A DNA stretch of 64,000 nt from a virus (IMGVR_UViG_2795385584_000001:21334-85333), one strand, 5' to 3'; numbered from the stretch's first letter, positions 35,477-38,995 are shown. A program made the numbers and translations. Notes: generated from the sequence alone by a model not told the origin.

Positions 35477-35493
35477 GACTCAAACTGTATAGT
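35477..35493. promoter_or_regulatory. palindromic operator-like site GTATAG-N4-CTATAC
   Basis: gtatagtccgctatac in an AT-rich intergenic region; same motif recurs at 38512 and 38940-38995. Confidence 0.35.
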
Positions 35494-35515
35494 CCGCTAT
35501 ACGTAATGTCGAGCG

Positions 35516-35629
35516 TTAGTCGGCGCGGATAACCGCGATAATCACGGCCGTCACGCAGAGCACCACGACGACAAGGACGACCGCGGCGGGCCATCCGTTC
35601 AGGCTCTGGAGTGGGGTGTTGAAATCCAT
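35516..35629 (-). CDS. small TM peptide (37 aa)
   Basis: MDFNTPLQSLNGWPAAVVLVVVVLCVTAVIIAVIRAD. Confidence 0.25.
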   Translation of the reverse strand: MDFNTPLQSLNGWPAAVVLVVVVLCVTAVIIAVIRAD

Positions 35630-35646
35630 TGCGGCGTCTGCCTTCC

Positions 35647-35877
35647 TCACCTGCTGACGTGCTGGGCGGTTGGGGTGCGGCCGTCGAGAATCTTCTGGAT
35701 CAGTCCCGGGCTGCACGTCACCGCCGCGGCCAGCGTGGCGTAGGTCCACTTCTCTCGTTCGGTGGTCCACAGTTCACGAACTAGCCGGTCTCGTTCGTAC
35801 CGGTGTTGTTCGCCGACGCGGGAGGCATCACGCTGCAACCGGTGATGCTCCCGCGCCTGCTGTGCCCTTGGGTCCAC
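35647..35877 (-). CDS. small HTH-like DNA-binding protein
   Basis: TYATLAAAVTCSPGLIQKI HTH-like segment. Confidence 0.3.
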   Translation of the reverse strand: MDPRAQQAREHHRLQRDASRVGEQHRYERDRLVRELWTTEREKWTYATLAAAVTCSPGLIQKILDGRTPTAQHVSR

Positions 35878-35883
35878 GCGTTC

Positions 35884-37599
35884 CTACAGTCCGGCCGAGA
35901 AGTCCGAGATCAGCTGCGGGACAGCCGAGTCGAAACCGGACACGTCGAGCTGGCCGGGGTCGGCGGGGTCGGCGATGGTGAAGCGGGTTGCCGTCATGCC
36001 GACAACGATCAGGCGGGCGTTGATGCCCGTCTTGTTGCGGTAGTCGCGGAGCGCCTGGTGTGGGTGGACGTCGCCGAACCAGGTTTCGTTGTCGGTGATG
36101 ACCACGAACGTGTCGAACTCGCGCTTGGACTGTTGTGCCCACAGCATGGGGAGTGCGCAGTCGGTGGCGCCGAAGCTGAGTCCGGCGGTGTACCGGCACA
36201 CGTCGTCGAGGCGGCGGCGCGGTGTGATGTCCAGCGGGGTGATGTGGTGCTGGGACCGGTAGCCGTAGCCCGAGCGCGCGGCCTGTCGTCCGTCGGTGAA
36301 GCCGACGACCTCGTGGTCGGGCTCGACGTTCGCGGTGACGAGTGCGAGTGCGGCTGCGGCCTCGCGGCATGTCAGCGGCATACCCGAGATCGCGGCACCC
36401 ATGGAGCCGGATACGTCCAGCGCCAACAGGGTTCGCTTCCCTGACGGCCGTACCGCGCCGTAGGCGTTGTAGAACGCGGTGTCCAGAGCGTCCACGACCT
36501 TGCGTTCCGGCGTCCAGGTGGAGTCGCCGCGCGCCGAATGCCCGGACGCGTAGGTGCGCTGTGCGATCAAGACGTTGACCGGGTGGACGCGTCCCTTGCG
36601 TAGACGGTCGGCGTCCTGGAGCTGAGCAACCACGCGATCCAGATATTCACCATGGAGGACCCCATGACGGGTCAGGCGAGGCAGTTGGCGCATCAATGCG
36701 GTCTGCGGCAGACCGTGCTCAATCAGCGCTTCCCACACAGCGGTGAAGTTGAGCGCGACGTCTGGCAACGCTTCCCAGGGAAGGCCGTTGCCACGTCGAA
36801 TGATGCTCACCCATTCCTTGGGCTGGGTGGCGCGCTGGGCATCCTCGAAGTCCTCGATGATCGCCAGGGGGTGGTCAACCACAAGCTCGACGTTAGGCAG
36901 CTTGGGCCGGGAGGCGTTGCGCTCCCCCGCCTTCAACTGCTCGGCAGTGAGGGGCTGGACCTTACCGATGTAGTCGTTCAGGCCCTTGCCGACTGCCCAG
37001 TTGAAGGCGAGGCGGCGAGCCGGGTCCGCCGTGGTGGGGCCGGACAGGCGTAGTAGGTCCCGGTGCATCCAGCCTTCGCGCTGCCGGTACTTGACCAGCT
37101 GGTAAGCGAGGCGGTCGACGGGCTTGTCGAGGTACCAGCCGCCGACGGCGCGCTGCATGGCGCGGCCCCACCCGCGGAACTGCTCCATGTACTTGACGAA
37201 CGTGTAGAGCTGGGTGCCGGTGCGGGCGACCGTGGGCAGGGCTGCTGCGGCGGCACGGCGGCCGTCGACGTCCTCTGCTGCGGCGGCGACGGCGAGGGCG
37301 AACAGTGCCGGGTTCTGCCGGGGTGCGCGTCCGTCCACAGACACCTCGACGATGTGCTGGACGAGGCGGACTGGGTCGGCCGCTGCTGCGCGGAGCACGA
37401 CGGCCGCTGTTTCCTTGGTGAAGTCGGGGGCGGTGGTGTAGTAGGTGCCGCCGTCGGTGCCGAGGGTGAGGAAGCGGTGCAGCAGGGCCTCGTCGTCGAT
37501 GGTGAAGGTGTAGCCACCGGCGGAGTTCTTCACCTGCCGGGGGTCCGCCTGCTGCGACTGCGGCGTCTTACGGGTTCCGATAGTGGTGAGGACGTCCAC
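35884..37599 (-). CDS. rsr: Ro60-like TROVE-domain RNA-binding protein with C-terminal vWA domain
   Basis: 571 aa; C-terminal vWA MIDAS LLALDVSGSM; N-terminal helical domain matches TROVE layout; GTG start with AAGGAG RBS; tRNA-like ncRNA array immediately upstream. Confidence 0.75.
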   Translation of the reverse strand: MDVLTTIGTRKTPQSQQADPRQVKNSAGGYTFTIDDEALLHRFLTLGTDGGTYYTTAPDFTKETAAVVLRAAAADPVRLVQHIVEVSVDGRAPRQNPALFALAVAAAAEDVDGRRAAAAALPTVARTGTQLYTFVKYMEQFRGWGRAMQRAVGGWYLDKPVDRLAYQLVKYRQREGWMHRDLLRLSGPTTADPARRLAFNWAVGKGLNDYIGKVQPLTAEQLKAGERNASRPKLPNVELVVDHPLAIIEDFEDAQRATQPKEWVSIIRRGNGLPWEALPDVALNFTAVWEALIEHGLPQTALMRQLPRLTRHGVLHGEYLDRVVAQLQDADRLRKGRVHPVNVLIAQRTYASGHSARGDSTWTPERKVVDALDTAFYNAYGAVRPSGKRTLLALDVSGSMGAAISGMPLTCREAAAALALVTANVEPDHEVVGFTDGRQAARSGYGYRSQHHITPLDITPRRRLDDVCRYTAGLSFGATDCALPMLWAQQSKREFDTFVVITDNETWFGDVHPHQALRDYRNKTGINARLIVVGMTATRFTIADPADPGQLDVSGFDSAVPQLISDFSAGL

Positions 37600-37735
37600 C
37601 GTGCATCTCCTTGTTAGAGGGTGCGGGCGGCGCGAACGTGTGAAGGGCTGCCGGGGTTCGTCATCCTTGCGAGGGGTGGGGTAACCGACTGCGATCCTGC
37701 TCGTGCCACCCGCGTGGGCTATTGGGCGGGTGATG

Positions 37736-37885
37736 TGAACGTGTGTGTGCTGACCGGGATTTCGCTTTTACACCCGCACTAGGTGCAGGCGACAGGGATT
37801 GAACCTGCATTAACCAATTGAGTGATAACTGACCGAGCGTCCTGTTCACATCGGGTTGTCTGTCGTGCGTGCGCGTAGGTGGCGT
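37736..37885 (-). ncRNA. Y-RNA-like (Yrl-type) tRNA-mimic module, unit 1
   Basis: T-arm-like GCAGG-TTCAATC-CCTGT; acceptor-like hairpin CCTGCAC/GTGCGGG; adjacent to rsr. Confidence 0.4.
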
Positions 37886-38052
37886 GGGCGTGTGGGGTGC
37901 TGACCGGCGTATGTGGACAATTGCCTCTACCAATTGGGCTACACCCCGCGAGCGAGGTGGTGGGGCTCGAACCCACACCTGACTGTTTTGGTAACCGACC
38001 TGCGTCCTGTCCACACCGCCTGCGCGCATGCGTCTGCTGGTGTTTGAGGTGG
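37886..38052 (-). ncRNA. Y-RNA-like tRNA-mimic module, unit 2
   Basis: T-arm GTGGG-TTCGAGC-CCCAC; acceptor hairpin CACCTCG-CTCG-CGGGGTG; D-arm TAGCCCAATTGGTAGAGG. Confidence 0.45.
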
Positions 38053-38218
38053 TGTGAGCGTGTGGGTTTCGTCCGGGTTTAGCGCTCTAGGCCGCTGAGC
38101 TACAACCACTTTCGTGGCTGGCGGGATTCGAACCCGCGTCTCTCTCAGGAAAGGAGATAACCGAACGAAGTCCTGTTCACACCGTGCTGTGCATGGAGTT
38201 GTGTTGGGTGATGGGGCG
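38053..38218 (-). ncRNA. Y-RNA-like tRNA-mimic module, unit 3
   Basis: T-arm GCGGG-TTCGAAT-CCCGC; acceptor hairpin CAGCCAC-GAAA-GTGGTTG (GNRA loop); D-arm TAGCTCAGCGGCCTAGAGC; long imperfect closing stem. Confidence 0.5.
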
Positions 38219-38381
38219 AACGTGTGTGTGCTGACCGGGGTTTAGCGCTCTGCCAACTGAGCTACAGCCGGGGGCTGGCTGGCGGGACTCGAACCCGCGA
38301 CCTCTCCATTACAAGTGGTAACCGACCTGCGTCCTGCTCGCACCATCTGGTGTCTATGTAGTTGTGGTCTGGGAGTGACGT
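38219..38381 (-). ncRNA. Y-RNA-like tRNA-mimic module, unit 4
   Basis: T-arm GCGGG-TTCGAGT-CCCGC; acceptor hairpin CAGCC-AGCCCCC-GGCTG; D-arm TAGCTCAGTTGGCAGAGC. Confidence 0.5.
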
Positions 38382-38528
38382 GAACGTGGTTGGCGCTGGG
38401 CGGGTTTGGCTCCATTTCCCCGCTTGGCTCGGGGCGTTCTAACTTGAACTACGGGGGCGTACCCCGAGATAACCGACCTGCATTCTGTTCACGTCGTCCG
38501 TTGTTTTGTTGTCTGAAAACGAAGCTAT
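38382..38528 (-). ncRNA. Y-RNA-like variant unit 5 (D-arm and hairpins, no T-arm)
   Basis: Hairpin CGGGG-TACGC-CCCCG; D-arm TAGTTCAAGTTAGAAC; hairpin CCCCG-AGCCAAG-CGGGG; shares the conserved flank. Confidence 0.3.
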
Positions 38529-38529
38529 A
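38512..38529. promoter_or_regulatory. perfect 18-bp palindrome GCTATACCGCGGTATAGC
   Basis: Same half-site as the 35477 and 38940-38995 motifs. Confidence 0.35.
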
Positions 38530-38595
38530 CCGCGGTATAGCGGTGCTGCAACAGGATTGAGGCTTGGCTGTATAGCCGCTCGGTAGCCGCGACCA

Positions 38596-38934
38596 TCACC
38601 GTCCGGCGCCAGCTCCTCCGCTCGCCGAGGAACCACCGCTACTAGCAGACCCGCTACCAGCGCTGTTACCTCCAGTTTCGCCCGCGCCAGGACCTGCCGG
38701 AGCTGTAGATGGACGGTGCTGGCCCTCAGGGCATTCCGGGTCCTCCGGAGGTTTGTATCCGCCGCCACCGGCTGGCGTGAAGGGCGCCGGTCGGGCGCCC
38801 AGGCAGGTCTTGGCGTCTGTCGCGGCATACAGGCAACGGTCGGGGAACGCGGAGGCGGTCGCAGTTGGGAGCACCGTTAGGGCCGCGATGGCGGCACCGA
38901 TGACGGCAATACGTTTTACATAAAGGCTTTTCAT
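38596..38934 (-). CDS. secreted Gly/Ser-rich protein
   Basis: Signal peptide MKSLYVKRIAVIGAAIAALTVLPTATASA; AT-rich 5' codons. Confidence 0.4.
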   Translation of the reverse strand: MKSLYVKRIAVIGAAIAALTVLPTATASAFPDRCLYAATDAKTCLGARPAPFTPAGGGGYKPPEDPECPEGQHRPSTAPAGPGAGETGGNSAGSGSASSGGSSASGGAGAGR

Positions 38935-38939
38935 GACTC

Positions 38940-38995
38940 GTAACGTATACAGAGCTATACACAGAAGCAAGGTCGTTAAGGCTTGTTCTTTCGTA
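38940..38995. promoter_or_regulatory. divergent promoter region with GTATAC/GTATAG operator-like repeats
   Basis: cgtatacagagctatac and gtatagtgcgctatac in an AT-rich region between the minus gene (start 38934) and the plus cassette (start 39019). Confidence 0.4.

Follow-up and report, generated by a model that had tools for sequence, protein, structure and literature searches.

Predicted operator-type palindromes in promoters of accessory units of a Mycobacterium abscessus MabK prophage, including its Ro/Y-RNA operon

The viral DNA stretch IMGVR_UViG_2795385584_000001:21334-85333 (64,000 nucleotides; "the window" below means this whole stretch, on which site positions are counted) carries four near-identical 16-bp palindromes built from the half-site GTATAG. 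The window is the reverse complement of a Mycobacterium abscessus cluster MabK prophage, and the complete prophage contains seven such sites, four in the window and three outside it. We propose, with a probability of about 0.65, that these palindromes are operator-type protein-binding sites located in the spacer and -10 element of SigA-type promoters that start accessory units of MabK prophages. One of them, PY, would be the local version of a dyad conserved at the promoters of rsr/Y-RNA (Ro/Y-RNA) loci in actinobacteriophages and in at least one actinobacterial chromosome.

Seven dyads on predicted promoters

The first site, P55 (GTATAGTCCGCTATAC; 35487 to 35502, minus strand), reads GTATAG-CGGA-CTATAC on the minus strand and lies between the stop of a gp54-like open reading frame (ORF) and the start of a gp55-like ORF. 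PY (38525 to 38540, minus strand) has the "everted" core CTATAC-CGCG-GTATAG and forms part of a perfect 18-mer, GCTATACCGCGGTATAGC, at 38524 to 38541. Psec (GTATACAGAGCTATAC; 38945 to 38960, minus strand) has one mismatch and reads GTATAG-CTCT-GTATAC on the minus strand, and PbrnT (GTATAGTGCGCTATAC; 38993 to 39008, plus strand) reads GTATAG-TGCG-CTATAC. A preliminary description of this DNA had reported near-identical palindromes in these gaps. The palindromes are real, and their coordinates had to be shifted by about 10 to 13 nt, which places the first at 35487-35502 instead of 35477-35493 and the perfect 18-mer at 38524-38541 instead of 38512-38529; the two copies assigned to 38940-38995 both exist, the second extending past that interval. 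Their location in AT-rich intergenic DNA was confirmed, as all four are noncoding and have a local G+C content of 0.43 to 0.53, compared with 0.647 window-wide.

Exact copies of GTATAG-N4-CTATAC were found twice in the window against an expectation of 0.01, and the everted form was found once against an expectation of 0.00. These three exact matches compare with about 0.01 by chance, and a chance origin of the palindromes is excluded. When the window was scanned with a symmetric position weight matrix (PWM), the four sites scored 21.5 to 28.7 bits, the next best position scored 13.0 bits, and the mean maximum score in shuffled windows was 9.8 bits. The same scan of the complete prophage yielded seven sites at 21.5 to 29.6 bits over a background of no more than 13 bits. 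The preliminary description had asked whether the motif might be scattered at random positions; the motif search looked for such placement and found all seven sites noncoding, on predicted promoters and cleanly separated from background. The three sites outside the window are P109 (record position 69101, in front of gp109), P114 (record position 73200, between gene 113 and gene 114, with the gene 113 side leading towards polymorphic toxin-immunity genes) and P115 (record position 73656, in front of gp115). They lie in the lysis-to-integrase region, which holds the polymorphic-toxin cassette, and the 73200 site of prophage prophiGD43A-5 is a 22-bp perfect palindrome with TACGTT on each strand.

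The 6-N4-6 dyad symmetry is present in seven of seven sites, with the TATA cores, and hence the half-site centres, exactly 10 bp apart, and sites occur on both strands. PY differs from the other six sites, termed canonical here, in that the outer and the inner base of both arms are swapped (C..C/G..G versus G..G/C..C). The canonical six and PY have the TATA-N6-TATA core and its spacing in common.

The window also contains 11 other lone GTATAG hexamers, all on the plus strand and without any feature of the four sites. Since most genes in this region run on the minus strand, these hexamers are read as a putative codon effect. A lone plus-strand half-site at 38570 to 38575, which lies 21 to 26 nt beyond the stop of the secreted-protein ORF described below, has no partner arm and no PWM match and is probably not functional. 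Elsewhere in the window, a 430-bp noncoding gap (28274-28705) contains a strong G+C-rich hairpin at 28591-28622 (aaacgcccccgg...ccgggggcgttt) and a weak motif-like dyad, GTATAACACGTGATAC, at 28649-28664, preceded by CGACATATGT; at 13 bits this dyad is not significant.

In the orientation of the gene that follows, each site takes up the spacer and the -10 element of a predicted SigA-type promoter. The end of the right arm supplies the first three bases of a TAnnnT hexamer, and -35-like hexamers lie 17 to 18 bp upstream. The predicted P55 promoter (35484 to 35512, minus strand) consists of TCGACA (35512-35507), 17 bp, TACAGT (35489-35484) and 7 nt before the ATG at 35476, and it was called independently by a promoter scan. 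The predicted Psec promoter (minus strand) has TTGCTT (38970-38965), 17 bp, TACGTT (38947-38942) and 7 nt before the ATG at 38934, and the predicted PbrnT promoter (plus strand) has TTGTTC (38983-38988), 17 bp, TACATT (39006-39011) and 7 nt before the ATG at 39019. At these three sites the ATG begins exactly 10 nt past the palindrome, and P109 is arranged in the same way, with TATACT and 6 nt before the gp109 ATG. Because the -10 element stands 7 nt before the ATG and leaves no room for a leader, the P55, Psec and PbrnT units are predicted to produce leaderless mRNAs. In mycobacterial leaderless promoters, TANNNT is centred 7 to 12 bp upstream of the start site (PMC3898074), and PMC8485053 describes toxin-antitoxin genes as typically leaderless.

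The putative PY promoter (minus strand) combines TTGCAG (38551-38546), an 18-bp spacer and TAGCTT (38527-38522); homology suggests TATAGC (38529-38524) as an alternative -10 element. No ORF follows. Instead, PY precedes the first Y RNA of an array by about 25 nt.

Constraint on the dyads and their reading as protein-binding sites

Orthologues of the sites were gathered from IMG/VR by pattern scans and by look-ups of the encoding contigs, giving 5 to 9 distinct sequences per site from MabK-like prophages. In the arms, 1 of 84 columns varied, compared with 7 of 28 for the N4 spacer and 88 of 280 for the flanks (20 nt on each side; Fisher P = 7e-11). At P55, for example, the arms are invariant in seven distinct orthologues, and the spacer (CGGA, CAGA, CGAA, CGCA or TGCA) and flanks vary. 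The left arm sits in the promoter spacer, where polymerase needs no specific bases, and is conserved as strongly as the right arm. The outer G/C pair is invariant in the six canonical sites.

The RNA hairpins that the dyads could form are weak (-5 kcal/mol, z about -1 to -2), having 6-bp stems that are mostly A-U; the value for PY is -9.2 kcal/mol. A U tract is absent from three of the four window sites. A terminator scan flagged only PY (38524-38541) as terminator-like, and the sites overall do not have the makings of intrinsic terminators. Two sites are placed between divergent promoters, so that no transcript is expected to reach them from upstream. Because the arms are constrained, including the left arm, the hairpins are weak, and two sites occupy a divergent promoter gap, the best reading of the dyads is that they are symmetric protein-binding sites acting, as we predict, at the DNA level.

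The dyads might, alternatively, have no dedicated protein and derive from a single promoter cassette that was multiplied by duplication or recombination, or be RNA or DNA hairpins serving as terminators or processing sites, or recombination junctions between modules. PbrnT and P115 are indeed identical at 23 of 24 bases, and P55 and P114 have CTCGACAnnAC in common upstream, similarities that point to common descent; in the uncultivated viral genome (UViG) 2795385756 the motif stands at a junction with differing downstream sequence, and PY was scored as terminator-like. Common descent, however, leaves unexplained why the arms are invariant amid drifting spacers and flanks and why the left arm, which polymerase does not need, has been retained. 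Hairpin functions fit poorly with weak stems, with three sites that have no U tract and with two sites in a divergent promoter region. We consider explanations of this kind improbable, and a protein-binding site remains our reading of the dyads.

From the sequence anatomy, the conservation pattern and the co-variation of arms described below, we infer the following mechanism of repression. The sites have what is expected of operators for a dimeric repressor: inverted half-sites one helical turn apart, overlap with a predicted promoter, and arms more constrained than spacer or flanks. A dimeric helix-turn-helix (HTH) protein placed on the two TATA cores would cover the -10 element and block RNA polymerase. 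The window sites would head the gp55 operon, the Y-RNA array with Ro, gp53 and gp54, a small secreted protein, and a BrnT/BrnA pair, and the outside sites would stand in front of gp109, gp114 (which adjoins the polymorphic-toxin cassette) and gp115. These accessory units would come under one switch, separate from the immunity repressor. Coordination of the rsr/Y-RNA locus with a reverse-oriented cassette, as proposed in the preliminary description, captured part of this arrangement, since one site lies on the rsr/Y-RNA operon promoter; its scope was too narrow, as the set is not specific to that locus and cassette and extends to seven promoters across the prophage, three of them outside the window. 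Likewise, the sites do literally bracket the Y-RNA array and the plus-strand cassette, and this follows from each neighbouring unit starting with such a promoter.

The Ro/Y-RNA dyad and candidate binders

A search of IMG/VR with an alignment of gp53-like proteins returned 35 loci, most of which have the order Y RNAs, Ro, sometimes a small gene, and then the HTH gene. In at least 17 loci, phage and chromosomal, a 6-N4-6 dyad lies about 25 to 45 nt upstream of the first Y RNA. The right arm of this dyad and the next T make up the -10 hexamer TACAGT, which is preceded at a distance of 17 bp by a TTGnCn hexamer. The start site predicted from this promoter falls on the 5' end of the Y RNA, as judged against the M. 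smegmatis YrlA sequence given in PMC4201824. The MabK hexamer that aligns with TACAGT is TATAGC, in which the final T is missing, and the canonical TAGCTT lies 2 nt downstream. The window has the same layout on one strand, with the dyad at 38525-38540 followed by the Y RNAs, Ro (35884-37599) and gp53 (35647-35877).

The arms of the Ro-module dyads co-vary, being CTGTAC/GTACAG, CTGTAA/TTACAG or GTGTAA/TTACAC in other loci and CTATAC/GTATAG in MabK. Across the 17 loci, 95% of arm positions are complementary, and three of the six pairs have changed on both sides. None of 500 shuffles reached the observed covariation score, a count that is not a probability because the sequences are related. Inner and outer positions both vary among the orthologous dyads. 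The chromosome of Pseudonocardia sp. DSM 110487 carries the dyad CTGTAT-cgcg-TTACAG-T (positions 2395-2420 of the extracted locus), followed by three YrlA-like RNAs, Ro, a small ORF and a gp53-family protein, and this rsr locus is apparently outside any prophage. The dyad/HTH module at rsr loci is therefore not phage specific.

As a separate observation, the lytic phage Alice (cluster C1) has no gp53 homologue next to Ro. Its Y-RNA promoter (about 4560-4600 of the extracted locus) consists of TTGTAG, 17 bp and TATAGT, with a different palindrome, TGTAG-tcgac-CTACA, over the -35 element and spacer.

The HTH candidate of the MabK module, gp53, is a 76-aa gp53-like protein (35647-35877, minus strand) encoded directly after Ro in the Y-RNA operon and followed by a gene for a 37-aa membrane protein. 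It has a weak Pfam HTH_31 match. An AlphaFold2 (AF2) model built from 55 sequences (predicted local distance difference test score, 89.9) contains helices at residues 3-39, 46-53 and 57-64, that is, a long N-terminal helix and a C-terminal HTH. The top Foldseek matches of this model were HTH domains of Lrp/AsnC, MarR and MntR regulators, none of them reaching significance for a protein of this size. At least 423 homologues belong to the family, whose genes stand close to Ro in those phage loci that were inspected and in one chromosome.

The form of the dyad follows the predicted recognition helix of the linked protein. Helices reading CSPELIAKI or ELVAAI accompany dyad cores TGTA..TACA, and helices reading CSP[G/Q]LIQKI accompany the -10-side arm GTATAG. 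Among the loci with a GTATAG arm, the full TATA..TATA dyad is present in MabK and in locus L274, and in loci L275 to L281 the left arm is degenerate (CATTAC tgag GTATAGT). gp53 had at first been rejected because the phages Farewell and Cashline are without GTATAG sites; it was reinstated when cognate dyads of these phages (CTGTAC/GTACAG and TGTAA/TTACA) were found at the homologous position. Because the PY-type arms co-vary and track the recognition helix of the Ro-linked HTH protein, gp53 is the best candidate for the binder of PY and possibly of all sites. It would most likely act at PY as an autoregulator, and the other six sites would be bound either by gp53, through expansion of its regulon in MabK, or by a second MabK-specific protein. 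We regard the chances that gp53 binds PY as about even, and binding of gp53 to all seven sites as possible but rather doubtful. The more general proposal, that the gp53 family, which has members in Actinobacteria and in their phages, is the so far unrecognized autoregulator of actinobacterial rsr/Y-RNA operons and acts through a -10 dyad and that this operator was copied onto six further MabK promoters, is offered as a tentative one.

The alternative of a second regulator, specific to MabK, has gp109 as its leading candidate; such a protein would bind the six canonical sites and leave only PY to gp53. gp109 (73 aa, encoded just outside the window and predicted to be leaderless) would be expressed from its own motif-bearing promoter, in which TATACT lies 6 nt before the ATG, and it matches PHROG 686, "HTH DNA binding protein" (E = 4e-4). 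Its distribution is that of the canonical motif, being confined to MabK prophages (2 of 50,697 phage records; M. abscessus only in the protein collection), and the canonical sites have invariant outer bases that are the reverse of the PY ones. The HTH assignment of gp109 is weak, however, with no Pfam match; a sequence search of the PDB gave no match, and AF2 modelling from the single sequence produced a helical hairpin, for which Foldseek gave no significant match. Restriction to MabK holds for many MabK genes, and under two regulators the TATA-N6-TATA core common to PY and the canonical sites would be a coincidence or convergence. A second regulator of this kind is unlikely in our judgment. 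A relation of gp109 to gp53 as a paralogue was also considered and discarded, as neither BLASTP nor hhalign found any.

The prophage immunity repressor is a further candidate, since MabK has the integration-dependent immunity layout of mycobacteriophage BPs, with attP inside the repressor gene, and in BPs the repressor has five binding regions and four promoters under its control (PMC4557955); the MabK sites, too, lie between genes and on promoters. The palindrome of BPs, however, is present at its operator OR, whereas the MabK immunity switch (the intergenic region between rep and cro/excise, 62185-62345) has no GTATAG/CTATAC site. This switch instead carries TTGCGCATATTCGCAA and TGCGCGTACGCGCA (62193-62208 and 62319-62332), two related dyads that are kept in prophiGD43A-5, are absent from the rest of the prophage and resemble the 12-bp palindrome of BPs in their AT-rich (ATAT/GTAC) centre; they are probably the immunity operators. 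The repressor gene on one side of the switch (62346-62645) encodes an XRE-type protein, and an excise/cro-like gene lies on the other. Because the switch lacks the motif and has different palindromes, binding by the XRE immunity repressor or the Cro/excise protein, both of which the preliminary description had put forward, is unlikely. The occurrence of a PY-type dyad in a nonprophage chromosomal rsr locus also speaks against distributed operators of the immunity repressor, an explanation that we hold to be quite improbable.

It is more improbable still that a host regulator of M. abscessus binds the sites and that the prophage accessory genes are wired into a host regulon. Such wiring is conceivable because gp53-family proteins and a PY-type dyad occur at the Pseudonocardia chromosomal rsr locus and homologues are reported from other actinobacterial genome assemblies, so that a host paralogue could cross-talk. 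The canonical subtype, however, is confined in IMG/VR to MabK-like prophages, all matches there being nine MabK-like UViGs and one unrelated low-GC contig, and in a scan of genome contigs no Mycobacterium was among the matches listed (at least 80 loci).

Several further proteins and sequences were considered. gp116, a TetR-like protein encoded next to the integrase, was rejected because it has a 55%-identical homologue in the MabH prophage prophiGD36-2, which has no motif. gp46 and gp11 (HTH/WhiB-like) were rejected because they have homologues in phage Bipper, whose nonstructural half (30-77.8 kb) is without the motif. No DNA-binding domains were found in the proteins of the P55 operon, and a BLAST search of the P114-P115 region against the 50,697 phage records matched only the two MabK records. 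In the scan of genome contigs for GTATAGYGCGCTATAC, metagenome-assembled genomes (MAGs) of Christensenella dominate the matches listed, and single high-GC actinobacterial matches lie in unrelated contexts. The related pattern GTATAG[TC]GCGCTATAC recurs, among the matches listed, in dozens of Christensenella or Christensenellaceae MAG contigs and occurs twice, next to TTGACA, in a viral contig of 41% GC. These Christensenella and viral-contig occurrences are unrelated to the mycobacterial sites.

A number of observations weigh against the proposal that the seven dyads are operators, or that gp53 acts at all of them. PY differs from the canonical sites at the outer and inner bases, and the outer base is invariant in the canonical sites, which argues for a binder that reads it; one protein for both site types is not assured. 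gp53 could accept both forms, since the inner and outer positions vary among Ro-module dyads. In Farewell, a phage with a gp53 homologue, the 50 kb examined contained a single dyad, and prophages L275 to L281, which have the same recognition helix as L274, showed no canonical sites either in their 9-kb loci or in two scans of the collection. A terminator is conceivable as well in the PY hairpin with the TTCGTTTTC that follows it; the T tract there is not conserved (TTCGTGTTC, TTCGTTTAC). Finally, the RNA-seq data on prophiGD43A-5 in PMC8092301 show the polymorphic toxin-immunity locus expressed in lysogens and most of the prophage silent. A motif promoter lies upstream of this locus in both MabK variants (the 73200 site in prophiGD43A-5 and P109 in prophiT37-1), and if the motif promoters drive the toxin cassette, the dyads are not fully repressing in lysogeny. 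Their binder might instead tune expression or regulate during the induction phase. Of the earlier proposal of operators for one dimeric regulator, the operator part agrees with the dyad anatomy, the overlap with the -10 element and the constraint on the arms, and the single regulator is not established, given the swapped bases of PY.

Prophage context and comparison with known systems

The window is 92 to 95% identical to prophiGD43A-5 (MW584167; about 95%) and prophiT37-1 (OQ417969). It spans record positions 64459 to 1 and extends a further 1.3 kb into flanking host DNA past a tRNA-Arg attachment site. On the minus strand, the YrlA-like Y-RNA array is followed by the Ro60 orthologue, the 76-aa gp53, the 37-aa membrane protein and then gp55 to gp66. 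The array (about 37600-38500, minus strand) lies upstream of Ro and was recognized by subthreshold YrlA matches (E = 2e-6 to 1e-3), and the Ro60/Rsr orthologue (35884-37599, minus strand) is annotated as gene 52 in prophiGD43A-5; together (35884 to 38500) they form a predicted unit transcribed from the putative PY promoter. Within the array, ARAGORN calls a tRNA-Thr(tgt) at 38272-38350 on the minus strand, as does the GenBank entry of prophiGD43A-5; the call overlaps a YrlA-like match and may represent the tRNA-like domain of a Y RNA rather than a tRNA.

The gp55-like gene (35147-35476, minus strand) begins at the ATG at 35476, which is the GenBank start of prophiGD43A-5 gene 55. Downstream of Psec, a 112-aa ORF (38596 to 38934, minus strand) encodes a protein with a signal peptide (MKSLYVKRIAVIGAAIAALTVLPTATASA...) and a Gly/Ser-rich tail and is predicted to be leaderless. 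It is conserved in six relatives, including a three-codon indel in prophiT37-1 that preserves the frame, and is unannotated in prophiGD43A-5 and prophiT37-1. The plus-strand cassette consists of a BrnT-like toxin with its antitoxin: the brnT-like gene (39019-39270, plus strand), predicted to be leaderless, has the antitoxin gene behind it. BrnT probably starts at the ATG at 39019, 9 nt upstream of the GenBank GTG of prophiGD43A-5 gene 50. Gene 114 of prophiGD43A-5 is annotated on the strand opposite to that of its prophiT37-1 homologue, gene 107, and the promoter together with a GGAAGG Shine-Dalgarno sequence favours the prophiT37-1 strand (the comparison concerns 38223-38597 of an extracted locus). 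These findings correct the gene calls by adding the secreted-protein gene, supporting leaderless start codons and favouring the opposite strand for one prophiGD43A-5 gene.

If the tentative gp53 proposal is true, one switch would govern Ro and the Y RNAs and, along with them, a toxin-antitoxin pair, the gene for a secreted protein, the polymorphic-toxin region and some dozen genes of unknown function. In M. abscessus, the motif would mark a second regulatory circuit, apart from immunity, that appears to govern accessory genes thought to affect host fitness and phage defence. The governed genes (the toxin-antitoxin pair, the polymorphic-toxin region and the secreted protein) are relevant to clinical strain variation and phage therapy. 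A conserved promoter dyad with a linked HTH protein also provides a testable handle on control of the Ro/Y-RNA module.

Repeated palindromes at dispersed promoters have precedents. The conserved inverted repeats (CIRs) of Streptomyces phage phiC31 are scattered, lie near promoters and are bound by the c repressor; they belong to the immunity repressor and early lytic promoters, and their sequence and length are unlike those of the sites described here. The repressor gp33 of BPs, a phage with integration-dependent immunity, acts on a 12-bp palindrome at OR and at four other intergenic promoters (PMC4557955). BPs and MabK are alike in being temperate actinobacteriophages with a common immunity layout and a short palindrome at several dispersed intergenic SigA-type promoters. 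They differ in that the BPs palindrome, CGACATATGTCG, is also at OR and bound by the immunity repressor, whereas the MabK switch has other dyads and the MabK motif GTATAG-N4-CTATAC marks accessory, moron-like units only. Compared with operators of an immunity repressor, the MabK sites thus have the extra copies at intergenic promoters (seven) and no copy at OR.

The stoperators in phages of cluster A and MabJ (L5 gp71 type; PMC9934374) are similar in being many copies of a short site in intergenic gaps of mycobacterial prophages, one of them overlapping a promoter. They are, however, asymmetric 13- to 14-mers present in about 14 to 30 copies, oriented with transcription and mostly off promoters, whereas the sites described here are symmetric, number seven, occur on both strands and lie each on a predicted promoter, and by these features they are not stoperators. 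The promoters themselves resemble mycobacterial leaderless SigA promoters (PMC3898074) in having a TAnnnT -10 element, 6 to 8 nt and then an ATG that would serve as start site and start codon; ordinary ones have no conserved dyad in the spacer, in contrast to those described here.

For the Ro/Y-RNA module, PMC4201824 describes bacterial rsr/Y-RNA (YrlA) loci with YrlA-like RNAs directly upstream of Ro on the same strand, including mycobacteriophages, as in the window. In contrast to the loci described here, neither an HTH protein nor a promoter element of the locus turned up in term searches of that paper, where "promoter" refers to TetRO and T7 constructs. No description of the motif was found in the papers searched that mention prophiGD43A-5 or cluster MabK or in a full-text search for the half-site. 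The Salmonella rsr locus is controlled by RtcR and sigma-54. To our knowledge, Salmonella apart, little has been established about what turns on the Ro/Y-RNA modules of bacteria and phages. The repressor-operator arrangement proposed here is of a kind already known; further interest lies in the dyad/HTH pair conserved at rsr/Y-RNA operons and in the possibility that it has spread onto other MabK promoters.

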